A stretch of 41,498 bases of DNA from Nitrososphaerales archaeon (GTDB lineage: Archaea > Thermoproteota > Nitrososphaeria_A > Caldarchaeales > Wolframiiraptoraceae), in the NCBI GenBank assembly GCA_023269855.1, contig JAGDWP010000056.1, forward strand, positions 1-41,498. The letters run 5' to 3'. Position numbers and translations under genes: made by a program. Below are positions 355 to 17,611 of this stretch, in pieces (the stretch's first letter is position 1; each line of letters begins with the position of its first letter). A model generated the notes under the pieces. That model saw only the letters and a program-made list of their open reading frames with translations, did not search any database and was not told the origin of the DNA.

Positions 355-1086
355 GTGGGTTATCTTCTTGAAGAAAGAAGCCCCGTAAAATTGTGGAGGT
401 ACGCTGGAGAAAGACATAGCAGATTGGTTATAGCGCTTGATTTCGTTGATGGGCAGGCTGTAGATGAGGATTCAGAAAAGCTGTTGAAAAAATGTTTCAG
501 ATTACTGGATTCTTTGAGAGAATACATTGTAGGCGTAAAGATAGGGTTCCCACTACTTTTATCGATTGGTACTGACGGAGTAAGAGAATTGACCGATGTA
601 TTCAGGAAGGAGCTATACTTCTTATCGGATTTCAAGATAGGCGATATTCCAGAAGTAGTCAATTACACTTTAAAACTACTAGAAGACCTAGGCTTCGATG
701 GTGCAACTATACACTTATTCCAAGGAGGCCTACACAGGATATCTGTAGAATCATTAGACTTGTTTGGAGTATTATTGATGAGTCATCCTGAAGCACTATT
801 ATTTGAAAGAAATCTTGATGAATTGATTAATCAATCATCAATGCCTTCGGTTGACGGAGTAGTGGTTGGAGCAACCAGAAAAGAGTATCTCCAAGAAGTG
901 AGAAGAAGATTGCCTAAGAAGACTATTTTATGTCCAGGCATAATAGCTCAAGGAGCTGAACCTGGACAGGCTCTAAGGTTTGGAGGAGATTTTGAAATAG
1001 TTGGAAGAGCAATTACGATGTCTCCTGACCCCGTCTCATCTATTAAGATGATCCTTGAGGCTGAGAGAAATGTACTCGAAAAATAG
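355..1086 (+). CDS. pyrF: Orotidine 5'-phosphate decarboxylase
   Basis: GTG start. OMP decarboxylase motifs are present: 'LVIALDF', 'VKIGFPL', 'DFKIGDIP', 'PGIIAQG', 'IVGRAIT'. It is first in a pyr gene run. Confidence 0.9.
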   Translation: MGYLLEERSPVKLWRYAGERHSRLVIALDFVDGQAVDEDSEKLLKKCFRLLDSLREYIVGVKIGFPLLLSIGTDGVRELTDVFRKELYFLSDFKIGDIPEVVNYTLKLLEDLGFDGATIHLFQGGLHRISVESLDLFGVLLMSHPEALLFERNLDELINQSSMPSVDGVVVGATRKEYLQEVRRRLPKKTILCPGIIAQGAEPGQALRFGGDFEIVGRAITMSPDPVSSIKMILEAERNVLEK

Positions 1087-1645
1087 ACTAGCAGAGATTC
1101 TGATATCCACTAATTGTGTAAAATTTGGAGAATTTATTCTCAGTTCAGGAGCTAAGAGCAACGTATACGTCGACATGAGGAAGATAATTTCCCACCCAGC
1201 CGAATTCACAGAGCTAATCCATATCTCTACAAGAGTGATAAATAATTTGAAGTCTGATGTATTGGTAGGAGTAGAATCTGGTGGAATACCGTTTGCTACT
1301 GCTCTAGCGATAGAGTTGAAGAAGCCGTTAATTTACGTTAGGAAAGAATCTAAGACTCATGGGTTAAGAAAGCTTATTGAAGGCGAATATAGAGAGGGCG
1401 ACATAGCATTAGTGATAGACGATGTATCTACAACTGGGAACTCTATCGCGAGAGCCGTTGAAGCTTTAAGATCAAGCGGGATCGTAGTCTCAGATGCGTT
1501 CGTAATCGTTGATAGAGAAGAAGGAGCACTAGAGAAATTAGAGCAAATGAATGTTAAATTGCATTCATTGATAACTCTTAGAGAAGTTCTATCTCACATG
1601 TCTAGGCCAGCTTCAATGACTTATGCTGGGGAGATCGGAGAATAA
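1055..1645 (+). CDS. pyrE: Orotate phosphoribosyltransferase
   Basis: Contains 'FGEFILSSGAKSNVYVD' and the PRPP loop 'LVIDDVSTTGNS'. The true start may be the ATG at 1070 (MYSKN...). It overlaps the pyrF 3' end. Confidence 0.9.
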   Translation: MRLREMYSKNRLAEILISTNCVKFGEFILSSGAKSNVYVDMRKIISHPAEFTELIHISTRVINNLKSDVLVGVESGGIPFATALAIELKKPLIYVRKESKTHGLRKLIEGEYREGDIALVIDDVSTTGNSIARAVEALRSSGIVVSDAFVIVDREEGALEKLEQMNVKLHSLITLREVLSHMSRPASMTYAGEIGE

Positions 1646-2506
1646 ATGAATATTCATGATAATCTGCTTGGTAGGGAATGGGTGGATAGACAACATTTTG
1701 ATTGTTTTTCTTCAAAATACGTGATTGGAGAAGTGTATGAGATACGTCAATTAACTCAAACCATAAGGGAGTATAATGCTAGGCTAAAAGAGGACATGGA
1801 ACCTGTGCCTGGACAATTTGCGATGCTGTGGATACCTAGGGTAGGTGAAATACCTTTGAGTTTCGCAGACTATTCCAAACAGACTGCAAGACTTATCATA
1901 AGCAGAGTGGGAAGGGTTACATCCTATATACATGAAAACATTAGCAAAGGCTCAAAGATATTGTTGAGGGGGCCGCTAGGAAGAGGTTTCACAATTCATT
2001 CTAAAAGAAGCTGCCTATTAATTGGGGGAGGATACGGTCTTGCACCACTCTACTACCTAGCTAAAATACTGAAAGAGAATAATTGTAGGTTAAAGACATT
2101 ACTAGGCTTTAAACACTCAGAGGATGTATTCTATGTTAATGAGTTCGGACAAGTATCAGAAGTACATGTTTCTACAGAGGATGGAGGGAAAGGATTTAAG
2201 GGAACAGTAATCGATATGCTTGAGAAGATTTTCAAAGAAGAAGAATCATTCGATGTAGTTTACGCATGTGGTAGAGAAGAAATGTTAATGAGAGTTGTTC
2301 AAGAATGTGTGAAAAGAAATATCGATGTTGAGATCTCTCTCGAGAGACAGATTAAATGTGGTCTCGGAATTTGTGGTTCATGCTCGATTGAGCCACTGGG
2401 CTTAAGAGTTTGTAGAGATGGACCAGTATTCAAAGGAGACATCCTATTACAGATAAAAGAATCTGAAATAGAAAGCGATGGAGAAAAGATATGTCTAAGA
2501 CATTGA
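1646..2506 (+). CDS. pyrK: Dihydroorotate dehydrogenase (class 1B) electron-transfer subunit
   Basis: Ferredoxin-reductase-like 'PGQFAML', 'GGGYGLAPL', and a C-terminal 2Fe-2S cysteine cluster 'CGLGICGSCS...CRDGP'. The ATG directly follows the pyrE stop. Confidence 0.9.
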   Translation: MNIHDNLLGREWVDRQHFDCFSSKYVIGEVYEIRQLTQTIREYNARLKEDMEPVPGQFAMLWIPRVGEIPLSFADYSKQTARLIISRVGRVTSYIHENISKGSKILLRGPLGRGFTIHSKRSCLLIGGGYGLAPLYYLAKILKENNCRLKTLLGFKHSEDVFYVNEFGQVSEVHVSTEDGGKGFKGTVIDMLEKIFKEEESFDVVYACGREEMLMRVVQECVKRNIDVEISLERQIKCGLGICGSCSIEPLGLRVCRDGPVFKGDILLQIKESEIESDGEKICLRH

Positions 2507-3465
2507 ATAACTTTAGTTCCATTAGAGAGAAGGTTAGCCATGGGAAGATAACGGTAGATCTGACAACCTCTATTTCGAAGTTATCTCTTAGGAATCCAAC
2601 AGTATTAGCTTCTGGGATACTCGGATCGTCATATAGTTTATTAAAGCGTGTTGAAGATGCTGGAGCGGGAGCTCTGACTACAAAGACTATAACTAGGGAT
2701 CCACGTGAAGGTTATGTTAACCCTGTCTTCGTAGACCTTGGCTATGGTTACTTAAACGCTATAGGGTTAAGAAATCCGGGAGCAGAAGAATTCAGTAAAG
2801 AATTATCTAGAGCGACGAAGAATATTCAGATACCGATAATAACTAGTATTGGTGGGAGTAAGTTTGAAGAATTCATTTTTGTAGCTGAGAAAATGCTTGA
2901 AGCAGGTTGTGATGCATTAGAACTTAATCTCTCATGCCCTCATGTTGATGGATACGGTTTAGATGTAGGCTTGGATGCAAAGCTAACATGCGAAATAATT
3001 AAACAATTGAAAAGTGTATCTTCTAAACCTATATTTGCCAAGATCTCATTACACCAATCTCAGAAAAATCTTCTAGAGAAATATATCAATGCAGGTCTCG
3101 ACGGCATAACAGCCATAAATGCTTTGAAAGGTCTAGCAATCAGTATCGAAGCACTATCACCCATACTCTCAAACGTTATAGGAGGACTTTCAGGACCATG
3201 TATAAAACCTGTAGCCCTTGCAATTGTATATGAAATACATAGAGAGTTCCCAGACATTCCTATTATAGGAGTTGGGGGAATACAGTCTCCTGAAGATGCT
3301 ATTGAGATGATCTTGGTTGGGGCTTCAGCAGTCGGCATAGGCTCAGCTATAGTTAGGAAAGACTTAAAGATATTCATGGAGATAATAGATGGCATAGAGA
3401 GATTCCTCTTAGATAATGGATTCAAATCCGTGAAAGAACTCATAGGTTACATAAATAGAAGATGA
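2491..3465 (+). CDS. pyrD: Dihydroorotate dehydrogenase catalytic subunit (class 1B)
   Basis: Contains 'NPVFVDLGYGYLNAIGLRNPG', 'ELNLSCPH', 'GLSGPCIKPVAL', 'IGVGGI'. It overlaps pyrK by 16 nt. Confidence 0.92.
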   Translation: MSKTLNNFSSIREKVSHGKITVDLTTSISKLSLRNPTVLASGILGSSYSLLKRVEDAGAGALTTKTITRDPREGYVNPVFVDLGYGYLNAIGLRNPGAEEFSKELSRATKNIQIPIITSIGGSKFEEFIFVAEKMLEAGCDALELNLSCPHVDGYGLDVGLDAKLTCEIIKQLKSVSSKPIFAKISLHQSQKNLLEKYINAGLDGITAINALKGLAISIEALSPILSNVIGGLSGPCIKPVALAIVYEIHREFPDIPIIGVGGIQSPEDAIEMILVGASAVGIGSAIVRKDLKIFMEIIDGIERFLLDNGFKSVKELIGYINRR

Positions 3466-3555
3466 CAGTGATAAGATTACATGCTGAAAGTTCTCGAGAT
3501 CTCAGTGTATTTTAGAGAGAAAGGTTAATAGTTTAAAGGAAGGCTTTGTTAATCG

Positions 3556-4695
3556 ATGATTAGTAAAGATGAGATAAAGAGTATCCTAGAGAGATATTCT
3601 AAAGAAAGGATAACGATAGGCGTCGTGGGAACTCATTCAGCTTTAGAAATATGTAGTGGAGCGAAAAATGAAGGTTTCAAAACAGTCGCATTATGCCAGA
3701 AGGGTAGAGAGAAAGTTTATTCAAAGTATTTTATCTCTAGGGAAAGATTCGGAAAGAAAATTGGAGTAGTCGATGAAGTAGTAATCCTAGACAGATTCCG
3801 AGACATAGTTAAAGAAGATATTCAGGACAAACTTAGAATGATGAACACTATTCTTATCCCCCATAGGGGATTGTCAGTATATGTTGGATACAACGTGCTG
3901 GAAAACTTTCTAAAAATACCTATATTCGGAAATAGATACTTACTCAAAATCGAGGAGAGAGGAACAAGTTTCAATCAATACAAGCTATTAGAGAAGGCTG
4001 GAATACCCTACCCTAAGATATACAGTAGCCCTCAAGAAATTGATAGACCAGTGATCGTGAAGGTGTCAGAAGCTGTTAGAGAATATGAGAGAGCTTTCTT
4101 CATAGTTTCTTCAACTAGAGAATTTGAAGAAAAATCGAGAGAACTGATAGAGAAGAAGCTAGTAACTAAGGAGGCTCTTGAGAAAGCAACCATCGAGGAG
4201 TTAGTAGTGGGTGCATACTTTAATTTTAATTTCTTCTATTCTCCGCTTGATGGTGAAGTTGAGCTACTAGGAATAGATATGAGGAGGCAGACAAACATCG
4301 ACGGTTTAGTAAGGCTGCCAGTCCCCCACCAACTCGAAGCATTAAAATATATTGAGTTGAGAAATATTGAAGTCGGACATATAGCTTGTACGATTAGAGA
4401 ATCATTACTTGAGAGAGCCTTTGAATTAGCGGAGAAGTTTGTTAAAGTTACTCAAGAAACATATCCACCTGGAGTTATAGGGCCTTTCGCTCTCCAAAGT
4501 ATAGTGGTTCCAGGACCGCCGCATGAAGAACTAATAGTGTATGATGTTAGTGTAAGAGTTCCAGGCTCACCAGGAATAAAATTTACACCTTATTCAGAAA
4601 ATCTTTGGGGTTACTCAATGAGTGTTGGTAGAAGGATTGCTTTTGAGATTAAAGAAGCTTTGAGAGAAGATAGATTAGAAGAGGTTTTAACATGA
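3556..4695 (+). CDS. purP: 5-formaminoimidazole-4-carboxamide ribonucleotide (FAICAR) synthetase, ATP-grasp, archaeal type
   Basis: The N-terminus 'ILERYSKERITIGVVGTHSALEI' and 'IPHRGLSVYVGY...IPIFGNR', 'GIDMRRQTNIDG' are typical of archaeal PurP. Confidence 0.85.
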   Translation: MISKDEIKSILERYSKERITIGVVGTHSALEICSGAKNEGFKTVALCQKGREKVYSKYFISRERFGKKIGVVDEVVILDRFRDIVKEDIQDKLRMMNTILIPHRGLSVYVGYNVLENFLKIPIFGNRYLLKIEERGTSFNQYKLLEKAGIPYPKIYSSPQEIDRPVIVKVSEAVREYERAFFIVSSTREFEEKSRELIEKKLVTKEALEKATIEELVVGAYFNFNFFYSPLDGEVELLGIDMRRQTNIDGLVRLPVPHQLEALKYIELRNIEVGHIACTIRESLLERAFELAEKFVKVTQETYPPGVIGPFALQSIVVPGPPHEELIVYDVSVRVPGSPGIKFTPYSENLWGYSMSVGRRIAFEIKEALREDRLEEVLT

Positions 4696-5792
4696 TTCCG
4701 AGAAGTCAAATATTAGATATTCTTAGACATTATAATGAATCAGATATTAAGATAGGTACAATATGTTCCCATACAGCTCTCCAAATATTCCATGGAGCGA
4801 GAAGAGAAGGAATCCCCTCAGTTGGAATAATCCTGCCTGAGAATAAACCATACTATGAGAGCTTCAATAAAGCTTTACCAGAAACATTCATTGAAGTTGA
4901 AAACTACAAAGAAATACTTAACGAAAACATTCAGAAGAAATTAATATCTGAAAACGTATTAATTATCCCCCATGGATCCTTTGTAGAATATGTTGGTGCG
5001 GAGAACATTCTTGAGAAATTTAGAGTTCCAATGTTCGGAAATAGATTAACATTGTTCTGGGAAGGTGATAGGAGAAGACAGAGAAGATGGCTTGATGAAG
5101 CTGGAGTGAGTGCGCCCAAGATTTATGAGAGACCCGAAGATATTGACAAGCTCGTAATCGTTAAACTACATGGTGCGAAGGGAGGTAAAGGATACTTTAA
5201 AGCATCAAACCCCAGAGAATTCTATGAAAAATTCGATCAGCTAAGAATAAATAATGTAATAAGCGAAATCAATGAAGTATTCATAGAAGAGTACATAGCT
5301 GGAGTAAGATATTATCCACACTTCTTTCTCAGCCTCCTTGAAAAAAAGAATATTCCAGACTTGGAAGAGGGAAGACTAGAATTACTGGGAATCGATCGGA
5401 GGCTCGAAGTCATAGATGAAGTTTACCGAGGTTTACCAATGATTATTGAAGAATATATTGATTATACAGTAACGGGAAATACTCCCGCAGTTGTTAGAGA
5501 GAAATATATTCTAGAGCTATTAAAGATTGCTGGAAGGATTGCTTCATCTGCTAGGAAGCTTTTTTACCCTGGATTGATTGGGCCATTCTGCCTTGAGACT
5601 ATATACAATCCAAAGAGGGGTTTCACCGTATTCGAGGTCTCAGCTCGAATAGTAGCTGGAACAAACCTGTACCCTGATGGTTCCCCATACTCAACGTTCT
5701 ACTTTGATGAACCCATGTCCATGGGTAGGAGAATAGCAAGAGAAATCAAGAACGCAGTCAAATTAAACTCTCTCAGCAAGATAGTATACTAG
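4692..5792 (+). CDS. purP: PurP paralogue (FAICAR synthetase family, ATP-grasp)
   Basis: It has the same architecture as the upstream gene ('ILRHYNESDIKIGTICSHTALQI', 'IPHGSFVEYVG...VPMFGNR', 'GIDRRLEV'). There is a 4-nt ATGA overlap with the first copy. Confidence 0.8.
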   Translation: MIPRSQILDILRHYNESDIKIGTICSHTALQIFHGARREGIPSVGIILPENKPYYESFNKALPETFIEVENYKEILNENIQKKLISENVLIIPHGSFVEYVGAENILEKFRVPMFGNRLTLFWEGDRRRQRRWLDEAGVSAPKIYERPEDIDKLVIVKLHGAKGGKGYFKASNPREFYEKFDQLRINNVISEINEVFIEEYIAGVRYYPHFFLSLLEKKNIPDLEEGRLELLGIDRRLEVIDEVYRGLPMIIEEYIDYTVTGNTPAVVREKYILELLKIAGRIASSARKLFYPGLIGPFCLETIYNPKRGFTVFEVSARIVAGTNLYPDGSPYSTFYFDEPMSMGRRIAREIKNAVKLNSLSKIVY

Positions 5793-5915
5793 GACTCATT
5801 CAATATCTATCGTTAAACAGAGTATACTCTCAAGTTTTTTCAAATATGTAATTTTCTCTCATATATTGAGGGTAAAAGATATATCCTGGTTTTTGATGTT
5901 TGTGAGAGGGATTTC

Positions 5916-7373
5916 GTGGTTAAAGTATTGGAAGATGTAGGTTTATCTTTTGATGATGTCCTGCTGCTACCTCGGAAGTCTTCTATAGTTTCTAGAAGAG
6001 AGATAGATACGAAAACTGAGTTTACTCAGAGAATTACTATAAACATACCTATAGTCTCTGCTGCGATGGACACCGTTACTGAGGCTACTATGGCCATAAC
6101 GATGGCTAGGGAAGGCGGAATAGGCGTTATACATCGATTCATACCTCCAGAGAAACAGGCTGAAGAAGTAGCTAAAGTGAAAAGAGCAGATAACGTAATC
6201 ATTGAAAAACCTTCTACGATACATCCGGATAGAACAGTTGCAGAAGCAAGGGAATTAATGAAGAATCTTGGAATAAGCGGTTTACTTGTAGTGGATTCTG
6301 AGAACAGACTGCTCGGAATACTTACACGGAGAGATATACTGTTTGAAGATAACTCTACCCGTGTAAGCGACTGTATGACACCCCGTAGAGATATGATAGT
6401 TGCTGAATCAAGCATATCTCTAGAGGAAGCAAGAAGCATATTCAAGAAACATAAAATTGAGAAACTTCCAATAGTAGACAAGGATAATAAAGTCAAAGGG
6501 TTAATCACTTGTGTTGACTTACTGAAGAGAGAAGCTTATCCTAATGCCTCAAGGGATTCAAAGGGTAGGCTAATGGTTGCGGCTGCTATAGGTGTGAAAG
6601 AGAAAGAAATAGATCGTGCAAAGCTTCTCATCGAAGCGGAAGCAGATGCAATAGTGATAGATGTAGCTCATGGTCATTCAAGTATGTGTATTGAAACCAT
6701 AAAAAAACTGAGGAGAATTTATGGAGATGAACTCCAGATAGTTGCAGGTAATGTTGCAACAGCTGAAGGTGTTGAAGATCTAGCCTCAGTAGGAGCGAAC
6801 GCTGTAAAAGTCGGTGTAGGTCCAGGATCCGTATGCACTACTAGGATAGTGGCAGGAGTAGGAATGCCACAGCTTTCAGCAATTCTTGAATGTGCTGAGG
6901 CAGCTGAGAAGATGGATGTACCGATCATAGCGGATGGAGGGATACGTGAAAGCGGAGATATCGTTAAAGCATTAGCAGCAGGTGCCTCAACAGTCATGAT
7001 TGGTAGATTGCTAGCTGGAACAGATGAAAGCCCCGGCGCAGTCATCGTTAAGAATGGTAAGAGATATAAAATCTACAGGGGGATGGCCTCAATCTACGCT
7101 ATGCTCGGTAGGGAATTCAGGTCAAGGGAAGATATCGCTGAAGCCTTGATAGATTCCCCTGAATACTCATACTATGCAGAGGGTGTTGAAGCATACATTC
7201 CATATACGGGCTCAGCATCAGAGATGATTAAGAAACTGATATCTGGATTAAGGTCTGGGATGAGTTATCTAGGTGCAAGAACAATAAAAGAATTAAAACA
7301 GAATGCTAAATTCGTTAGAGTTACTTTAGCAGGGATTAAGGAGAGCATGCCTCATGATGTTGAAGTAATATAG
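5916..7373 (+). CDS. guaB: IMP dehydrogenase with CBS pair
   Basis: GTG start. Contains '[10 protein letters not shown]', '[11 protein letters not shown]', the catalytic loop '[12 protein letters not shown]', 'IADGGIR', 'GSLLAG'-like 'IGRLLAGT'. A CBS insert is visible (approx. aa 95-205). Confidence 0.95.
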
Positions 7374-8632
7374 TGATCAAAAGTATGCCTGGCATAGCCA
7401 TAATCGGGTTACAGTGGGGAGATGAAGGAAAAGGAAAGATATCGTATCTGTTGTCAAAGAATGCGAAATACGTGGTAAGATTTCAGGGAGGAGCAAACGC
7501 GGGTCACACAGTAGTCATAGATGATAGTGAGCTGAGATTCAATATGCTTCCAGCTGGTTCAGCTTCAGGTGCTACTCCATGTATTGCATCTGGAACTGTG
7601 GTAGACTTAAACGAAGTAGTAGAGGAAATAGAATTATTGAAGAGTATAGGAATAAGAGTTCAACCGCTCATAAGTAAGAATGCAAACATAGTCTTACCGA
7701 TACATAAACAGTTGGATGAGATTCTCGAGAAGATGAGGAGTAGAGAGGCCATAGGTACTACGAGGAGAGGCATTGGACCAGCATACTCTGATAAAGCTTT
7801 ACGAATCGGTATAAGAATAGAGGAGCTCCTCCACCATGCATCGTTGATAAATAAAATAGAACTGCTTCAGAACTTTCACAAACTATCATTAGAAAACATG
7901 GATGAATTAATTAAATTAGCTGAAAAGCTTAGGGAAAGCATATGTGATCTTGAAATTATTTTGAATGATGAGTTAGATAATGGAGTAAAGATCGTTTTTG
8001 AAGGTGCTCAAGGGACATTACTTGACATTGATCAAGGAACATATCCATATGTTACATCATCTAACACGACTATTGGAGCAGTATTTACAAGCTGTGGGAT
8101 AGGACCTAGAAGAATCTCAGATATCGTAGGGGTGATGAAAGCTTACACTACAAGAGTAGGAGCAGGAGTATTTCCAACAGAGTTAAAGAGAGATGAAGCA
8201 GATATGTTGAGGGAGAGAGGAAGAGAATATGGAACGACTACTGGAAGACCCAGAAGAGTAGGATGGCTAGATATCCCCCTACTACGATACAGTATAATGG
8301 TGAACGATATAGACTGGATTGCGTTAACTAAACTTGATGTCCTAAGCGGCTTCAGGAAGATAAAGATATGTACTGAATATGAGATTAATGGGAAGATTGT
8401 TAAGATAGCTCCACCAAATGTAAGAATGCTTGAGAAAGCTCAGCCCCTCTACGTAGAATTAGATGGATGGTCTAGGCTGAGTGAAGAAGAGTGGAAGAAT
8501 ATAGTAATGAAGGGATGGGATGCGTTACCGGAGAATGCTAAAGCATATGTTGAGACTGTGGAAAAGCTTCTAAACAAATCGATTAAACTGATTTCAGTAG
8601 GAGCAAAAGCTGGAATGGAGGTTACTAAGTAA
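7373..8632 (+). CDS. purA: Adenylosuccinate synthetase
   Basis: Contains 'GLQWGDEGKGK', 'GGANAGHT', 'GTTRRGIGPAY', 'GTTTGRPRR'. The GTG at 7373 overlaps the guaB stop. The ATG at 7385 is an alternative start. Confidence 0.95.
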   Translation: MIKSMPGIAIIGLQWGDEGKGKISYLLSKNAKYVVRFQGGANAGHTVVIDDSELRFNMLPAGSASGATPCIASGTVVDLNEVVEEIELLKSIGIRVQPLISKNANIVLPIHKQLDEILEKMRSREAIGTTRRGIGPAYSDKALRIGIRIEELLHHASLINKIELLQNFHKLSLENMDELIKLAEKLRESICDLEIILNDELDNGVKIVFEGAQGTLLDIDQGTYPYVTSSNTTIGAVFTSCGIGPRRISDIVGVMKAYTTRVGAGVFPTELKRDEADMLRERGREYGTTTGRPRRVGWLDIPLLRYSIMVNDIDWIALTKLDVLSGFRKIKICTEYEINGKIVKIAPPNVRMLEKAQPLYVELDGWSRLSEEEWKNIVMKGWDALPENAKAYVETVEKLLNKSIKLISVGAKAGMEVTK

Positions 8633-10029
8633 TGGACCCTCTCAAATCGATTACACCTATAGATGGAAGATATAGAGAGAAGGTCAGACTGCTAGAAGAC
8701 TATTTCTCAGAATATGCATTCATTAAAGAAAGAGTCAGAATAGAGATAGAATACCTAATCAAATTCATTGATGAGGTTGAAAACTCTAAGATAGCTAGTC
8801 TACCGTCTGATTGGAAGAATGTTTTATGTGAGGTTTATCAGAACTTCTCTATAAGAGATGCTGAGGAGGTTAAGGAGATTGAGAAAACAGTTGGTCATGA
8901 CGTATTCGCTATAGTGAGATACCTAATGGAGAAAGTAGATAAATGTGGGTTAACGGTTTTAAAACCATATCTGCATATAGGTTTAACTTCAGAAGATGTA
9001 AACAATCTTGCCTACTCCTTATTAATGAAGAAATTTAATGAGGAGGTACTGATACCCTATTTGCTTAAACTTGTAGATGAGCTATCTAGATTATCTCTTG
9101 AGAACATTAATGTGGTGATGCTTGCCAGAACACATAGTGTACCTGCTGTTCCAACAACTTTTGGGAGATTCCTAGTCAATTACGCTTATAGAGTTGCGAA
9201 GATCGTTGAAGAACTCTCTGACATAGAATTCCCCGGTAAGATCGGGGGAGCAATAGGAGACTACAATGCTTTAAAATTTGTTTACCCTGAGATTGACTGG
9301 ATATTGTTTAGTAAAATCTTTGTTGAATCCCTAGGATTGACTTATTTTCCAGCTTTCACACAGACTCTACCTCATGAGCAGTTATCAAACTATTTGATGA
9401 AGATAGCATTACTAGACTCGATACTCTCCAATCTTTGTAGAGATTTATGGATGCTTTCTCTAATTGAATACATATCCTTTCAAGCAGGTAAACATGAAGT
9501 ACATTCCTCAACTATGCCTCACAAATCTAACCCGATACTCTTAGAGAATGCTGAAGGAGCGTTTGACCTCTCTTCAGAGATCCTATCCTACATTAGTAGA
9601 AGACTACTATCCAGTAGACTCCATAGAGACTTGTCAGACTCGATAATAAAGAGATTCTATGGTCTACCATTATCCCTGACGATTCTAGGGATTCAGAATC
9701 TTACATCGTCCCTAAATAGATTGGAGATTAATAAGGAGAGAATGCTCAAAGATGTTGAAGAACATCCAGAGGTTCTATCTGAAGCATATCAAGTCTTTCT
9801 TAGAAGACATGGCTTTCCAGAAGCGTACGAAACAATTCAGAGACTTCTCAAAGAAAACCCGCAGAAGATACGTGGTGAATTAGAAAAAAGAGTTCCCTCA
9901 GAGAAACTCCGTGAAATAATTAAACTTGCTCCACATGAATATCTAGGTGAAGCAGAAAGAATAGTCAAACTCTTAATTAGAGAAATTGAAGAGATAAAGA
10001 ATAGAATACATAGTTTAAAATTGAGATAG
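8632..10029 (+). CDS. purB: Adenylosuccinate lyase
   Basis: Fumarate-lyase signature 'SSTMPHKSNP', plus 'GLTSEDV' and 'TPIDGRY' at the N-terminus. It overlaps the purA stop by 1 nt. Confidence 0.93.
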   Translation: MDPLKSITPIDGRYREKVRLLEDYFSEYAFIKERVRIEIEYLIKFIDEVENSKIASLPSDWKNVLCEVYQNFSIRDAEEVKEIEKTVGHDVFAIVRYLMEKVDKCGLTVLKPYLHIGLTSEDVNNLAYSLLMKKFNEEVLIPYLLKLVDELSRLSLENINVVMLARTHSVPAVPTTFGRFLVNYAYRVAKIVEELSDIEFPGKIGGAIGDYNALKFVYPEIDWILFSKIFVESLGLTYFPAFTQTLPHEQLSNYLMKIALLDSILSNLCRDLWMLSLIEYISFQAGKHEVHSSTMPHKSNPILLENAEGAFDLSSEILSYISRRLLSSRLHRDLSDSIIKRFYGLPLSLTILGIQNLTSSLNRLEINKERMLKDVEEHPEVLSEAYQVFLRRHGFPEAYETIQRLLKENPQKIRGELEKRVPSEKLREIIKLAPHEYLGEAERIVKLLIREIEEIKNRIHSLKLR

Positions 10030-10115
10030 TCTGTCAGCGAGGTATACATCCTTTTGTTAATTTTAGGAACTTATGTGTAGGCAAGTTTATATAAGGAGAT
10101 AAATACGAACGTACC

Positions 10116-10679
10116 ATGGTCAAGGAATATAGTAGTTTTAGGAAACCTGATCCACTAACAAGTATCGCCTACATGGCTGTTACATCAGCGGTAACAGGGG
10201 TTGGTTTCTTATTGACAGCTCCTATACCACTAATCCCTGGAGCAATCCATTGGCGTGTACTAGCTTTCCTACCATGCGTTTTCGGGATCCTCTACGGCCC
10301 CATAATAGGATTTGTCTCAGGAGCTATAGGCAACACTTTGTGGGCAATACTAGGTGGATACTTTAACCCAGCTACCCCAGTCTTCGACTTAATAGGTGTA
10401 GGGCTTACAGGGTTAATCCCGGGATTATTCTGTAGACCACAAGATTCAACATCTAGCAAAGGGTTACTGAAAATAGCGTTAATCAGCTTGATTTCAGGAA
10501 TAGTTATGGTGCCAATTGTTGCAGTAGGATTCGACTTAGTCGGAGTCGCTCCATTCGGTCCAGCGGTAGTCTTCCTCATATTAAGTGACCTTCCACCAAT
10601 ACTAATCGGAACCCCGATAGTAGTAGCAGCGATAGCGCCACCACTTCTGAGGAGGAATTTAATTAAATGGAGACTCTGA
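10116..10679 (+). CDS. Small polytopic membrane protein, candidate ECF-transporter substrate-capture (S) component
   Basis: 187 aa with about 5-6 hydrophobic Gly/Pro-rich helices. It lies immediately upstream of, and overlaps by 13 nt, a duplicated ECF-type ATPase. The size and position match S components. No substrate-specific motif was recognised. Confidence 0.55.
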   Translation: MVKEYSSFRKPDPLTSIAYMAVTSAVTGVGFLLTAPIPLIPGAIHWRVLAFLPCVFGILYGPIIGFVSGAIGNTLWAILGGYFNPATPVFDLIGVGLTGLIPGLFCRPQDSTSSKGLLKIALISLISGIVMVPIVAVGFDLVGVAPFGPAVVFLILSDLPPILIGTPIVVAAIAPPLLRRNLIKWRL

Positions 10680-12121
10680 ACTGTCTAGAAGTAAGGGACC
10701 TAGATTGTAGATATGATTCGCAACTAGTATTGAGAGGTATATCTTTCAAAGTTAAACCAGGTGAAGCAGTAGCTATCGTAGGTCCTAGTGCTTCAGGAAA
10801 GACAACTTTAACATACTGTCTCTCAGGAATAATACCGAACAGGATATACGGTGAAGTATCAGGAAGCATAAAGATAAATGGCAAAGAGCTTTTAGGGAAA
10901 CCGATAAAAGAATTTATTGAGTACGTCGGCGTCGTACTTCAAAACTATGATTTACAGATTTTCGGATTAACTGTTGAAGAAGACTTGGAACTGAGTCTCA
11001 GAGAGAAAGATGAAGATATGCTTAGATGGGTTCTACAATTCTTTGAATTAGAAAAGTATAGACACCACTATGTTCATGAACTTTCAGGAGGGCTAAAACA
11101 TAGGCTAGTAATAGCTTCAACGATTCTTTCAGACCCAAAATATATCATAATGGATGACCCAGTAGCAAACCTCGATTGGAAGAGTAGAAAAATAGTATCG
11201 AAAACAATAGAGTTACTGAAAGAAAAAGGGAAGGGCGTCATAATTCTTGGGAGAAAACTGAAAGGATTAGAGAATGTTATAGACCGAACACTCAACTTAA
11301 GTAAAGACTATGAATCCAATGATGTAGTAAAAAATCTGCAAACGGAAGCTGTGGTTTCAGACCCCCAGCCCAGAACTAGTGATCCCCCAATTGTTGACTT
11401 TAGAAAAGTATACTTTAGATACGGTAGAGAATTTGTTTTAAAAGATATCTCTCTACAAATTAAGAAGGGGGAAATATTTGCAATTATGGGTCCAAATGGA
11501 TCGGGTAAGACCACCTTAACGAAGCATATCATTGGTTTACTCAAGCCTACTATGGGGACGGTAATAGTAGACGGAGTAGATACACGTAGTAGAAGTCCAG
11601 CTGAAATGTCGAGATACGTAGGTATGGTTTTCCAAAACCCTGAGAAATACTTTGTTTCCGAAACTGTATGGGATGAAGTAGCCTTCGGGGTTAGAAATCT
11701 CAAATTAGATGAGAAAAATGTTGAAGAAGCATTACATATACTTAACCTACTGGATAAGAAGGATGTCAGCCCCTACTCTCTAAGCATGGGTGAGAAGATC
11801 AGGTTATACATTGGATCCATACTTGCAATAAATCCCGAGATTATAATACTCGATGAACCTACAACGGGTCAAGATGAAGAAACATTAATACAGATAAGAA
11901 ACGTTGTTAATAAGCTTAAGAAAATGGGGAAAACAATAATAATCGTAACACATGACTCCGACTTCACAGTATCTATCGCTGATAGATTAGCTATACTAAA
12001 AGATGGTGAAATCTTTGCGGAAGGCAAACCAGTGAAGCTATTAGAGAATCAAGACCTAGTTGACGAGGTCGGGATAGAACCATTATCCATAAAGGGGGAG
12101 GAAAAATGTTTAGCAAAATGA
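10667..12121 (+). CDS. Fused double ABC ATPase of the ECF/CbiO type (EcfA-EcfA')
   Basis: Two complete cassettes are present: Walker A 'GPSASGKTT' and 'GPNGSGKTT', signatures 'LSGGLKHR' and 'LSMGEKIR', Walker B 'IIMDDP' and 'IILDEPTTGQD'. Confidence 0.85.
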   Translation: METLNCLEVRDLDCRYDSQLVLRGISFKVKPGEAVAIVGPSASGKTTLTYCLSGIIPNRIYGEVSGSIKINGKELLGKPIKEFIEYVGVVLQNYDLQIFGLTVEEDLELSLREKDEDMLRWVLQFFELEKYRHHYVHELSGGLKHRLVIASTILSDPKYIIMDDPVANLDWKSRKIVSKTIELLKEKGKGVIILGRKLKGLENVIDRTLNLSKDYESNDVVKNLQTEAVVSDPQPRTSDPPIVDFRKVYFRYGREFVLKDISLQIKKGEIFAIMGPNGSGKTTLTKHIIGLLKPTMGTVIVDGVDTRSRSPAEMSRYVGMVFQNPEKYFVSETVWDEVAFGVRNLKLDEKNVEEALHILNLLDKKDVSPYSLSMGEKIRLYIGSILAINPEIIILDEPTTGQDEETLIQIRNVVNKLKKMGKTIIIVTHDSDFTVSIADRLAILKDGEIFAEGKPVKLLENQDLVDEVGIEPLSIKGEEKCLAK

Positions 12122-12840
12122 CTGTTATACTAGATCCGAGAACGAAAATCATCATGTTTATCTCATGGTTCTCTCTAGCTTTTATCTGTAGAGACATATA
12201 TAGTATCTCAGTATTGCTGGCTTCTTCGATAATCGTCTTACTCCTAACCGGCTCATCTGTACCAATATTGAAGAAGATGAAGTATATGCTACCTTTAATC
12301 TTATTTGCATGGCCACTGTGGACATTTCTCAACCAATGGTCACTATTCTATAGTTCGGGTAAAGGAATAGACCCCTATTTCGGTCTATTAATGATGCTTA
12401 GACTATTACTGATCGTAATAATCTCACTAGCCTTCATTTATTTCGTTAAACCAGTAGAGATAATTAAAGCTGTAAGCTCTCTCAAGCTTCCATCATCATT
12501 TGGAGCAGTACTTGCATTAGCTTTCCGAAATCTATACATTATTGCAGAAGATTATAAGTCGATTAAGGAAGCTCATACATCTAGAGGCTTAGAGCTTGAC
12601 AGGGGGTCACTGATCACGAGGATAAAAAATCATATCCCACTACTGATACCTTTAATCATCAGAAGCATTGACAGCGCTGAAAAGCTAGTTCTATCACTAG
12701 AACTACGTCCAAACATTATGAAGAAGAGAAAGATGGAACCTCTAAAAACTATTGATATCGTGATAGTGATTGGGTGCATCTTAATACTTTTCCTGACAGT
12801 TTATTATAATTATTACGTGGTGACATGGAATGTGTCCTAG
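12106..12840 (+). CDS. ECF transporter transmembrane (T) component, CbiQ/EcfT family
   Basis: 244 aa and polytopic. It has a coupling-helix-like 'IKEAHTSRGLEL' (A-x3-RG type motif). It overlaps the ATPase gene by 16 nt. Confidence 0.7.
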   Translation: MFSKMTVILDPRTKIIMFISWFSLAFICRDIYSISVLLASSIIVLLLTGSSVPILKKMKYMLPLILFAWPLWTFLNQWSLFYSSGKGIDPYFGLLMMLRLLLIVIISLAFIYFVKPVEIIKAVSSLKLPSSFGAVLALAFRNLYIIAEDYKSIKEAHTSRGLELDRGSLITRIKNHIPLLIPLIIRSIDSAEKLVLSLELRPNIMKKRKMEPLKTIDIVIVIGCILILFLTVYYNYYVVTWNVS

Positions 12841-13432
12841 AACTTTTGAATATACTGGTCAAGAGAAGTATACTATTAAGATAGGGGGATTGGTCAGAGA
12901 GTTACCATTAATCCAGGTTTCAAGTAATGTCTGGATAGCATCAAACGCAGATTTAATTCTAGGGGATATCGAATTCATTCAGACTGCAGCTGACCTACTA
13001 TATGAAAAGATTAAACCATTCAATCCAGACATAATAGTTACGCCTGAAGCTAAGGCAATCGCATTTGCATACGAAGTAGCTAAGAAGATGAAGCATAAAA
13101 ATATAGTTATAGCTAGGAAGTCTGTTAAAGCATACATGACTGATTATCTCCTAGAAGAATGTTCTTCAATAACTACTAAGGGTAGACAGATCCTGCTACT
13201 TGTAAGAGAAGATGCTTTAAAATTGAGAGGCAAGAAAGTCTGCATCCTTGATGATGTAGTATCTACAGGTGGAACAATAACAGCATTAGAGAGATTGGTT
13301 AGAAAAGCAGGAGGAGAAGCAGTCTGTAAAGCAGCTATATGGGTTGAGGGACCATGGTACACCGGCGACTTAATCTATCTAGATGAACTCCCGATCTTCC
13401 TTAAACCACAAAGATGCGTCGATACTGATTGA
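12830..13432 (+). CDS. Type I phosphoribosyltransferase, Xpt/PurR-C-terminal-domain-like (purine base PRTase)
   Basis: Contains 'IVTPEAKAIAFAYEVAKKM', 'VIARKSVKAYMTDY...SSITT' and the PRPP loop 'VCILDDVVSTGGT'. The layout resembles bacterial xanthine PRTase and the PurR effector domain. It overlaps the T component by 11 nt. Confidence 0.8.
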   Translation: MCPRTFEYTGQEKYTIKIGGLVRELPLIQVSSNVWIASNADLILGDIEFIQTAADLLYEKIKPFNPDIIVTPEAKAIAFAYEVAKKMKHKNIVIARKSVKAYMTDYLLEECSSITTKGRQILLLVREDALKLRGKKVCILDDVVSTGGTITALERLVRKAGGEAVCKAAIWVEGPWYTGDLIYLDELPIFLKPQRCVDTD

Positions 13433-13467
13433 ACTTAAAAATTATATTATATAAAATAGTTTCTAAA

Positions 13468-13718
13468 ATGGGAAAAGTGGTGGAGGATGGGGGCTGGCTG
13501 ATGAGCTATAGTAGCCGTGAAGCCTGGGGCGAAGTTCATCTAATCTAATAGAGACATATGTAGATGATAATGGTAAGATTGTATGTCCATAATGTAACAC
13601 CATTATGCATCCTGATGATTATAACTATGAGTTTATAGATATTAATGATCGTTATTATGGTGTACTCTCAATAATTATTAAATGTCTAAGATGTGGTTCA
13701 TTATTAGAAGTATTTTAA
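13468..13718 (+). pseudogene. Probable disrupted small zinc-ribbon gene (frameshift plus in-frame TAA)
   Basis: The ATG at 13468 opens a 26-codon frame ending at 13548. A second frame, open from 13521, reads ...YVDDNGKIVCP*CNTIMHPDDYNYEFIDINDRYYGVLSIIIKCLRCGSLLEVF*. This gives a CPxC...CxxC pair whose first knuckle is interrupted by TAA at 13590-13592. Confidence 0.35.
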
Positions 13719-13745
13719 AAGTGTATGGAAGAGAAGTATTAACAG

Positions 13746-13943
13746 TTGAGATTCATAAAGAAGGGTGAGCTCCCTCCTGTTACAAGTAGTTATGGATTAG
13801 ATTCCTTAAAGGAAGTATTACAAGATGCTGTTTTCCCAATGACCAAAAATGAATTAGTAAAGAAGCATGGATGGAAGCTTATCGATATCGATTCGAAGAC
13901 TAGACTCCCAGTATTCGTTAAGAAGCAGAGCGACCAAGTCTGA
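13746..13943 (+). CDS. Small protein, DUF2795-like
   Basis: 65 aa with a TTG start. 'LKEVLQDAVFPMTKNELVKKHG' resembles the DUF2795 'L..v.FPa.K.eLi..a...G' pattern. The start codon is uncertain. Confidence 0.45.
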   Translation: MRFIKKGELPPVTSSYGLDSLKEVLQDAVFPMTKNELVKKHGWKLIDIDSKTRLPVFVKKQSDQV

Positions 13944-14119
13944 AAAACTCTACAAATCCAACTTCCTAATCATTCTAGCTTGAAGGGTTTAAAATTCAGA
14001 ATCATATATGGGGATAGTTGCGGAGGAGACAAGTATCTGAAGCGTTAAAGAATATTTATGATATGCTTTTCAAGAATAAATATTATATAATGTTAGACCC
14101 GTAGTGGAGTAAATCGAGT

Positions 14120-14893
14120 ATGAAGGTTTTTGTTGGAACCTGCGGTTGGTCTGTTAAAGGTGGGAAAAAAGAATATTGTAAATTCTTTGATACAATCGAG
14201 GTTCAAGAGACCTTTTATAAACTTCCAAAGGTTGAGACAGTGAAGAAGTGGAGAGGAGAACTACCCGAAGAGTTCATCTTTAATATGAAAGCATGGCAGG
14301 TAATCACTCATCCACCTTCAAGCCCAACTTGGAGGAGGAGCGGATTAAAAATATCTAAATCGAAGATTAACCAGTATGGTTCACTCAAGCCTACTGATGA
14401 GAATCTTACAGCGTGGGAGAAAACATTGGAAGTAGCGGAAGCAATGAATGCAAAGATTATAGTAATTCAGACCCCTGCATCATTCAAGCATAATCAAGAA
14501 AATCTAAAAAACATTGAGGAGTTTCTCTCTAGAATCAAGAGAGGTAAAAGCTTAATTGGGTGGGAGCCTAGAGGAGATTGGAGAGACCACCTAGATGACG
14601 TAAGGAGAATCTGTACTGAGCAAGATATCTTACACGTTACAGACCCATTTAGATGCGAAAATGTATCCGTGCATTCAATTAGATACTATAGGCTTCACGG
14701 AATAGGGGGTAAAGAAGTAAACTATTCATATGTTTACACCATTGATGATTTCAAGAAACTCATCGAGTTATTAAAGAGAGATGAGAATAATGGTGTTGAA
14801 GAAGCATACGTGATGTTTAATAATGTTAATATGCGAGAAGACGCTTTGAAATTCAAGAACTTCTTTTCAAAGGAGTTTTTCCATAACAAATAG
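14120..14893 (+). CDS. DUF72 (UPF0759) family protein
   Basis: Contains 'VGTCGWS', 'FDTIEVQETFYKLP', 'KWRGELPEEFIFNMKAWQVITH', the canonical DUF72 N-terminal pattern. Confidence 0.8.
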   Translation: MKVFVGTCGWSVKGGKKEYCKFFDTIEVQETFYKLPKVETVKKWRGELPEEFIFNMKAWQVITHPPSSPTWRRSGLKISKSKINQYGSLKPTDENLTAWEKTLEVAEAMNAKIIVIQTPASFKHNQENLKNIEEFLSRIKRGKSLIGWEPRGDWRDHLDDVRRICTEQDILHVTDPFRCENVSVHSIRYYRLHGIGGKEVNYSYVYTIDDFKKLIELLKRDENNGVEEAYVMFNNVNMREDALKFKNFFSKEFFHNK

Positions 14894-17182: not shown

Positions 17183-17611
17183 ATGAGTGAAGTTGAGAGA
17201 ACATTCATAATGTTGAAGCCAAGCTGTCTAGAGAGAGGTTTAGTCGGAGAAGTCATATCTAGATTCGAAAGGAAGGGTTTGAAGATCGTTCAGGTAAAGT
17301 TCCTGAAGATGACTAGGAGAATGGCTGAAGAACTATACAGTATCCATAGGGGAAAAGACTTCTATGAGAAACTTGTGAGAACTCTAGAGAATAAAAGAGT
17401 CGTAGCAATGATTCTCGAAGGTAGAAAAGCCATCCTGGTGGCCAGAAAAATTATCGGTGCAACAGATCCGGTTAATGCTGAACCTGGTACAATCAGGGGA
17501 GACTTAGCAATAGATCTTACAGAGAACCTGATACATGCTTCAGACAGTCTAGAATCCTACCTGAGAGAATACAAAATATTCTTCAAAGATGAAGAACTAG
17601 AAACATTATAA
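17183..17611 (+). CDS. ndk: Nucleoside diphosphate kinase
   Basis: Contains 'ERTFIMLKP', 'GATDPVNAEPGTIRGD', 'NLIHASDS' (catalytic His). Confidence 0.95.
   Translation: MSEVERTFIMLKPSCLERGLVGEVISRFERKGLKIVQVKFLKMTRRMAEELYSIHRGKDFYEKLVRTLENKRVVAMILEGRKAILVARKIIGATDPVNAEPGTIRGDLAIDLTENLIHASDSLESYLREYKIFFKDEELETL

Follow-up and report, generated by a model that had tools for sequence, protein, structure and literature searches.

There are four genes on the forward (+) strand of a 41,498-nucleotide contig from a Nitrososphaerales archaeon of the Caldarchaeales (GenBank JAGDWP010000056.1, referred to in its entirety as the window) that resemble an energy-coupling factor (ECF) transporter joined to a phosphoribosyltransferase (PRT). 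They occupy positions 10116-13432, and each gene overlaps the next at its start and stop, by 13, 16 and 11 nucleotides in succession. The first gene (10116-10679) encodes a 187 amino acid S component matching PF07155, and the second (10667-12121) encodes a fused double ECF ATPase of 484 amino acids with two ABC_tran domains and a match to TIGR04520. The third (12106-12840) encodes a 244 amino acid T component of the EcfT/CbiQ type (PF02361), and the fourth (12830-13432) encodes a type I PRT of 200 amino acids (PF00156, NF005592), which is the proposed trapping enzyme. An initial annotation of this DNA had described the same overlaps and gene identities. The open reading frame (ORF) coordinates agree with it exactly, and all four assignments are supported by profile matches. 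The four genes form one translationally coupled unit, preceded by a putative TATA box that is specific to it and by a conserved palindrome.

Conservation of the ECF-PRT linkage

A search that took one genome from each GTDB species yielded 49 archaeal loci, which were examined together with 10 kb on either side and onto which the window proteins were mapped by tblastn. Six of these loci end inside the operon on a contig edge. The gene order S-A(A)-T-PRT, noted in the initial annotation for the window, is present in every locus whose contig is long enough (43/43), other genomes included. The operon is found in Caldarchaeales, Korarchaeota, Methanomethylicota, Bathyarchaeia, Brockarchaeota, Thermoproteales, Aenigmatarchaeota, Woesearchaeota and metagenome-assembled genomes (MAGs) of Halobacteriales, and it spans at least eight archaeal lineages. 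Contigs fetched separately from Korarchaeum, Aenigmatarchaeota, Fervidicoccus and one Sulfolobales MAG agree with this arrangement. Two separate genes encode the ATPase in DPANN, Bathyarchaeia and Thermoproteales. There are approximately 150 close homologues of the S component, all of them archaeal, and PRT homologues are encoded on the same contigs.

On other halophile contigs the AA-T-S genes are located on the strand opposite to the PRT gene, in divergent or convergent orientation, and the two are still adjacent (L059, 7001-10938; L060, 3708-7624; L061, 2830-6746). The survival of PRT adjacency through such rearrangement of gene order argues for functional coupling. There are also PRT genes that lack ECF neighbours, namely an orthologue in Halarchaeum sp. 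P4 and a bacterial homologue in Thermus. From the S side, the four-gene linkage is universal in this family and is not attributable to chance.

The transporter subunits

The S component scores 46 bits in a Pfam profile search against a cutoff of 26.7 for PF07155. By comparison, its score with the RibU equivalog model NF010182 is 21.2 bits, far under the cutoff of 99, and none of the solved S components in the PDB is matched by sequence at E<=1. An AlphaFold (AF2) model built from an 18-sequence alignment has a pLDDT of 89.9 and displays the S-component fold. When this model is used as a Foldseek query, BioY, RibU, FolT, ThiT and PanT are all matched alike (probability 1.0, TM 0.5-0.6, 14-20% identity), and RibU is not favoured over the other S components. 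Because the RibU score is low, no PDB sequence is matched and the structural matches are equivalent, the protein is best viewed as having an S-component fold without belonging to a family of known substrate. The initial annotation had held that a clear place in a vitamin or metal S-component family would count against a nucleobase importer, and no such family with a known substrate was found. Both the sequence and the model thus portray this subunit as a small six-helix protein with the S-component fold, and as the putative founding member of a distinct archaeal family.

This family is unusually well conserved, with 80 of the 187 alignment columns being invariant across phyla. When random pairs of loci are compared (L006-L054), S has the highest conservation among the four subunits in 250 of the 250 pairs, with median identities of 74% for S, 56% for PRT, 49% for AA and 41% for T. 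This is the reverse of the pattern expected from other ECF systems, wherein the S component is usually the least conserved subunit. The closest relatives of the window's S component, at 83-87% identity, are encoded by Ca. Geocrenenecus (Caldarchaeales/Aigarchaeota) MAGs.

The fused ATPase reaches 318.9 bits with TIGR04520 (ECF_ATPase_1), for which the cutoff is 315. In its N-terminal domain the H-loop His is missing and the Walker-B DE is in most cases replaced by DD, and its C-terminal domain carries a degenerate signature, LSMGE. Both the N-terminal degeneracy and LSMGE are retained in 38 orthologues, and the pattern predicts that one of the ATP sites is degenerate and inactive and that the other is of the consensus type. 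The T component scores 74 bits with PF02361 (CbiQ/EcfT; cutoff 25). A T component is found in all related loci, where the S gene always shares its operon with the A and T genes, and no gene for an extracytoplasmic binding protein recurs near the operon in these loci. This architecture is that of a dedicated (group I) ECF-type ABC importer, as the initial annotation had recognized, and ATP-driven import is predicted.

The phosphoribosyltransferase

The PRT passes the cutoff of the 'adenine PRT' subfamily model NF005592/PRK07322, with 183.2 bits against 143. The initial annotation had regarded this protein as an Xpt/PurR-type enzyme, and this assignment must be revised. The Xpt models TIGR01744 and NF006671 give only 37 bits (cutoff 164) and 42.8 bits (cutoff 177), and the PurR model TIGR01743 gives 31.8 bits (cutoff 258.7). 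As a group, the models for Xpt, HPT_Archaea and HGPRT give 20-43 bits, which is far under their cutoffs, and the score for PyrE is likewise far below its cutoff. The best solved relatives are the adenine phosphoribosyltransferase (APRT) structures 5zgo and 6fsp from T. thermophilus, with E-values of approximately 1e-32 and approximately 45% identity. Other solved relatives are the adenine phosphopsicosyltransferase 7f06 and the T. thermophilus 'PRT-related protein' 1vch, and the bit score is higher with the catalytic Thermus APRT (116) than with 1vch (74).

The loop for phosphoribosyl pyrophosphate (PRPP), VCILDDVVSTGGT, is invariant in 19 ECF-linked PRT orthologues, as are the motifs ARKS.KAYM and SITT, and in the window this loop reads ILDDVVSTGGT. 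The invariance of these three motifs is consistent with PRT catalysis. Also invariant in the ECF-linked proteins are IASNA and WxEGPWY, the latter including Trp171 and Trp176. Thermus differs at these positions (FtEGtp- in place of WxEGPWY), and therefore the base pocket of the archaeal enzymes may differ as well. The T. thermophilus APRT is specific for 6-aminopurines, with 48% conversion of adenine and 6% of hypoxanthine (PMC6317416). The archaeal PRT is a member of this Thermus-type adenine PRT subfamily, and it may catalyse the conversion of adenine and PRPP to AMP.

Purine genes that neighbour the operon

In the window the operon stands at the end of a same-strand nucleotide supercluster of approximately 13 kb. 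The cluster opens with pyrF-pyrE-pyrK-pyrD (355-3465, +), which are upstream of two genes for PurP-like ATP-grasp proteins carrying DUF1246/DUF1297. The type 'a' protein (3556-4695, +) has EAVREYERAFF where the KGGKG P-loop is expected, and the type 'b' protein (4692-5792, +) keeps KGGKG. These are followed by guaB (5916-7373), purA (7373-8632) and purB (8632-10029), which are identified from their translations and are all encoded on the + strand directly upstream of the S gene. Thus, the pyr genes, the purP pair and guaB-purA-purB together cover positions 355-10029 before the ECF operon begins. The initial annotation had emphasized the position of the operon after guaB-purA-purB. This holds for the window, and it is not a general partnership because this adjacency is found only in the window, L006 and L007, which are close relatives.

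A different picture emerged when ORFs were called in all loci and clustered. The sole widely recurrent additional family is the PurP-like family, which is present in 20 loci counting the window and in eight arrangements. Homologues of type 'a' adjoin the ECF-PRT genes in 19 of the 49 loci, and also in Korarchaeum and the Sulfolobales MAG. A purP-purP pair immediately precedes S in Korarchaeum, L010 and L025, and it is separated from S by guaB-purA-purB in the window, L006 and L007. The pair follows the PRT gene in L023, L047, L054 and L057, or follows both the PRT gene and a gene for a helix-turn-helix (HTH) protein with a PRT domain in L028 and L040. A long single purP comes after the PRT gene in L017, L033, L035 and L048, and in the first two its start overlaps the PRT stop. 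A single purP is located 17 nucleotides before S in L021, purP lies after the PRT gene on the opposite strand in L036, L038, L039 and L051, and L046 has purP after the PRT gene at the contig end.

Types 'a' and 'b' are paired in many of the related loci, and loci with a single PurP carry the P-loop-less type with the motif ERAFF, like the window protein at 3556-4695. The window proteins match 2r7k, the MJ0136 FAICAR (5-formamidoimidazole-4-carboxamide ribotide) synthetase, with 284 bits for type 'a' and 297 bits for type 'b', and the PurP-like neighbours at other loci also match this structure. At a single locus, in the Halobacteriales MAG L052, PRT is followed by a gene (13892-14509) for PurO, the inosine monophosphate (IMP) cyclohydrolase, as judged by 196 bits with PF07826. 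PurO is unrelated to PurP, yet it belongs to the same segment of the pathway, from 5-aminoimidazole-4-carboxamide ribotide (AICAR) to IMP.

Other candidates for partners were considered and discarded. Neighbouring CBS, NFACT-like, secreted, HD, SDR, glycosyltransferase and PAC2 proteins reflect lineage-specific synteny and have no functional link to the operon. The 371 amino acid product of the gene after PRT in Fervidicoccus is not PurP-like and has no Pfam match.

Promoter, operator and a candidate regulator

A palindromic, operator-like motif, GTATACATCCTTTTGTTAATTT, is located at 10042-10063 (+), 74 nucleotides before the S start codon. Downstream of it, a putative TATA box, TTTATATA, at 10087-10094 (+) lies approximately 22 nucleotides before the ATG at 10116, and this spacing implies that the mRNA is nearly leaderless. 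An A/T box is present at the equivalent place in related loci. The palindrome has the consensus TT(A/T)TACAT-N5-(A)TGT(A/T)AA(A/T)TT, with a core of TTTACAT-N4/5-ATGTAAA, and it occurs upstream of S at a nearly fixed distance in approximately 40 of 47 non-redundant loci across archaeal phyla. In Caldarchaeales and Korarchaeota it precedes the TATA box, at approximately 70 nucleotides from the S start. The copies in DPANN and Bathyarchaeia abut the TATA box and are approximately 50 nucleotides from the S start. A scan with a position weight matrix (PWM) gave 69 raw matches, compared with 13-16 for shuffled sequence, and almost every one of the 69 is upstream of S. Within the window, the core pattern is matched exactly at 10042-10063 and nowhere else. 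The only Rfam match in the window at gathering thresholds is a tRNA, and no riboswitch or RNA leader was found before the operon.

There are approximately 12 loci in which the operon is adjoined by a gene for the HTH-PRT protein mentioned above, which is 236-243 amino acids long. This protein scores 273 bits with NF006328 and has a partial likeness to B. subtilis PurR (79 bits). It is encoded at 6645-7376 in L001 and at 13369-14097 in L007, and is also found in L006, L008, L010, L018, L021, L028, L040, L045, L046 and L049. Where it is present, the HTH-PRT protein probably regulates the operon via the palindrome, and it is a candidate sensor of PRPP or of a nucleotide. The window itself lacks this gene, and a tblastn search of the 690-nucleotide gap after PRT found no remnant of it.

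Several minor observations concern these control elements. A weaker second copy of the palindrome often overlaps the TATA box. One strong extra operator site is found in a Brockarchaeota MAG, ahead of a gene for an MFS transporter beside the operon. In Brockarchaeota-like loci (L029, 6076 and 6141-7502; L026, 11868-12827), a 453 amino acid MFS-type transporter encoded after PRT has this operator (18.8 bits), and a PfkB-family kinase is encoded nearby in several loci. An operator regulon shared with purP or guaB was also considered and is unproven, as there are only weak or half-site resemblances.

A candidate substrate and its trapping

We consider it likely that the operon provides an ECF importer and a catalytic PRT for a base of the purine pathway. 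In such a system, the S component would bind a small heterocyclic base outside the cell, and the EcfAA'T module with its one degenerate ATP site would drive import of this base. The PRT would then condense the base with PRPP to give a nucleotide, which would make uptake irreversible and leave the base trapped. The conserved partner PurP, joined at one locus by PurO, points to AICA (5-aminoimidazole-4-carboxamide)/AICAR or adenine as the probable base, and away from xanthine-type oxopurines. Of these, AICA is favoured. The PRT would convert AICA to AICAR (also called ZMP), and the neighbouring PurP-like enzymes would formylate AICAR to FAICAR and close this compound to IMP. In the window, the products of guaB, purA and purB would consume the resulting IMP, giving the xanthine and guanine nucleotides XMP/GMP on the one hand and AMP on the other.

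Some precedent for the trapping step comes from E. coli APT, which converts AICA and PRPP to ZMP (PMC9299608). A possible physiological setting is offered by K. cryptofilum, in which Brown et al. (2011, PMC3261824) noted the absence of de novo purine genes and of histidine genes. This organism nonetheless keeps two adjacent purP-like genes, one of them Kcr_0401, as well as purB and the enzymes that carry IMP to AMP and GMP (PMC3261824). The source of its AICAR was termed 'some unidentified salvage pathway' and the role of its PurP-like proteins was called unclear (PMC3261824). On contigs encoding a PRT that NCBI assigns by name to K. cryptofilum OPF8, the distance from the end of the purP pair to the S gene is 124 nucleotides. 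Import of AICA would explain why PurP, and once PurO, is selectively linked to the operon, why purP is kept in a genome without an internal source of AICAR, and why in the window the complete lower purine pathway is found beside the importer. Full-text searches of the available literature returned no paper that ties an ECF transporter to a PRT, PurP or AICA, and an earlier prediction may exist.

Several observations weigh against AICA as the substrate. The Thermus APRT rejects 1,2,4-triazole-3-carboxamide, an AICA-like base (PMC6317416). The PurP-like neighbours reach 334-363 bits, which is below the cutoffs of 556-603 for the NCBIfam FAICAR-synthetase equivalogs, and the PurP type most tightly linked to ECF-PRT is the one without a P-loop. 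No activity has been demonstrated for members of this P-loop-less group (PMC3261824). In about half of the loci there is no PurP within 4.5 kb, the PurO adjacency is a single case, and other halophile loci have no PurO beside the operon. Finally, operator resemblances upstream of purP, guaB and other window genes are only weak or half-site, with no PWM match of at least 12 bits.

With these points taken into account, the explanation as a whole, in which a co-translated APRT-family PRT traps the base delivered by a group I ECF importer and AICA is the favoured base, earns a confidence somewhat short of even. The particular route, with AICA taken up by the transporter, trapped by the PRT in the form of AICAR and passed on to IMP through PurP, is proposed a shade more cautiously. 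Still more tentative is the suggestion that the module serves as AICA salvage that feeds AICAR to purine-auxotrophic archaea such as K. cryptofilum, under control exerted by the PurR-like HTH-PRT protein through the palindrome.

Alternative explanations

The main rival is that the operon takes up adenine (6-aminopurine), which the PRT converts to AMP, and that PurP adjacency reflects a loose clustering of purine genes. Adenine is far commoner in the environment than AICA. In addition, the PRT falls within a subfamily named for adenine, and the hood and PRPP-loop regions align well with those of the T. thermophilus APRT, an enzyme that prefers 6-aminopurines (PMC6317416). Some purine-auxotrophic archaea, such as A. 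pernix, also need adenine (PMC3261824). Adenine import leaves unexplained why PurP is the single recurrent neighbour, in eight arrangements and often within the operon, and why K. cryptofilum retains purP without an internal source of AICAR. Loose clustering also explains little given that the adjacency of guaB, purA and purB is confined to a single lineage, and the differences from Thermus at Trp171 and Trp176 of WxEGPWY mean that the base pocket may not be the same. We therefore regard adenine as a serious candidate that is somewhat unlikely. Perhaps instead the base is another heterocycle, such as an aminoimidazole, a 7-deazapurine or a modified base, that is phosphoribosylated and then undergoes a PurP-like ATP-grasp reaction. 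The S family has no characterized member, the linked PurP type has no proven function, and the APRT-family fold allows unusual chemistry, as exemplified by the phosphopsicosyltransferase 7f06. However, neighbour clustering reveals no biosynthetic or modification gene that recurs near the operon, and the PurP residues for the AICAR phosphate and the formyl group are conserved in both clusters (PMC3261824), which makes a base of this kind rather improbable.

By analogy with xpt-pbuX, the initial annotation had stressed oxopurines (hypoxanthine, xanthine or guanine) trapped by an Xpt/HPRT-like enzyme. Its proposal of an importer coupled to a PRT for uptake and trapping holds as a genomic inference, given that the linkage is universal and survives rearrangement, whereas the emphasis on xanthine-type oxopurines does not. 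The operon logic is indeed that of xpt-pbuX, and the genes preceding the operon in the window consume IMP, but these genes have that position in three related loci only, the Xpt, HPT_Archaea and HGPRT models remain far below cutoff, and the Thermus APRT performs poorly on hypoxanthine. Oxopurine import is accordingly judged quite improbable. Another possibility is that the PRT is a non-catalytic subunit of the transporter that senses nucleotides or PRPP, much as a Thermus APRT homologue regulates glutamate dehydrogenase. A stoichiometric subunit would be in keeping with the strict 1:1 coupling and with the way in which the PRT start overlaps the stop of the T gene, and 1vch belongs to the same family. 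Such a role is very unlikely considering that all PRPP-binding and flexible-loop motifs are invariant, that the PRT gene is on the opposite strand in halophile loci, and that the protein is nearer to the catalytic APRT than to 1vch. We give almost no credence to an ordinary riboflavin (RibU-type) transporter with an incidental PRT neighbour. This reading draws on the name of the matching Pfam family, 'ECF-type riboflavin transporter S component', and it is at odds with the low RibU equivalog score, with the lack of a sequence match to solved RibU and with a fold search that does not prefer RibU over BioY, FolT or ThiT. Moreover, no riboflavin genes are found nearby and the PRT linkage is universal.

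Comparison with known systems

The operon resembles other group I ECF systems, including YkoEDC for the thiamine precursor HMP, QrtTUVW for a queuosine precursor, BioMNY and CbiMNQO, which likewise group the S, A/A' and T genes together without a solute-binding protein. Features in common are the small six-helix S component, the ECF-type ATPase and the EcfT/CbiQ T component, and the likely substrate would again be a small aromatic heterocycle, as are HMP and preQ0/preQ1. The archaeal system differs in that its S component is outside the families with an assigned substrate and is the most conserved subunit, in that it always includes a fourth gene, for a cytoplasmic PRT, and in that the tie is to nucleotide rather than cofactor metabolism. 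So far, it is found only in archaea.

The co-expression of a transporter with a PRT, such that an imported base is trapped as a nucleotide, is shared with xpt-pbuX. In the archaeal operon, however, a primary active ECF/ABC transporter takes the place of the NCS2 secondary permease, the PRT is APRT-like rather than Xpt, and a protein-bound operator, instead of a riboswitch, is the likely control element. The Thermus APRT (5zgo, 6fsp) is of the same subfamily as the archaeal PRT and has in common with it the PRPP loop, the ARK..K.YM loop and SITT. Its gene is solitary, lacking ECF neighbours, and it differs from the archaeal PRTs at their invariant IASNA and WxEGPWY motifs. PurP and PurO (the MJ0136 FAICAR synthetase and IMP cyclohydrolase) catalyse the last two archaeal purine steps, and the neighbours of the operon belong to PurP and, in one instance, to PurO. 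Unlike the canonical proteins, these neighbours are encoded beside an importer and a PRT rather than beside de novo pur genes, they have sub-equivalog scores, and in one type the P-loop is missing.

ECF transporters are regarded as importers of vitamins and metals. The present data suggest an ECF transporter family with an obligatory PRT and a tie to nucleotide metabolism, and a purine-base function is not described for this class. A family for a nucleotide precursor that is hard-wired to a trapping PRT would widen the known role of ECF transporters. If AICA is indeed imported, no earlier ECF transporter would be known to carry an intermediate of the purine pathway, and P-loop-less PurP paralogues would gain their first physiological role. 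AICA salvage would also offer a concrete answer as to where the AICAR of K. cryptofilum comes from and what its purP-like genes are for. The module hints at how thermophilic and DPANN archaea that are uncultivated and cannot make purines de novo might be fed, which could help in their cultivation. The conserved operator and the neighbouring HTH-PRT protein provide an entry point to archaeal purine regulation.

Other features of the window

The gap of 690 nucleotides that is 3' of the PRT gene (13433-14119) contains a 65 amino acid ORF (13746-13943) with no Pfam match, and it also holds stretches like C/D-box motifs (TGATGA...CTGA). Further downstream, ndk is located at 17183-17611. At the other end of the window, there is a tRNA-Arg(GCG) on the - strand at positions 64-154, whose length of 91 nucleotides leaves room for an intron and fits an archaeal origin.

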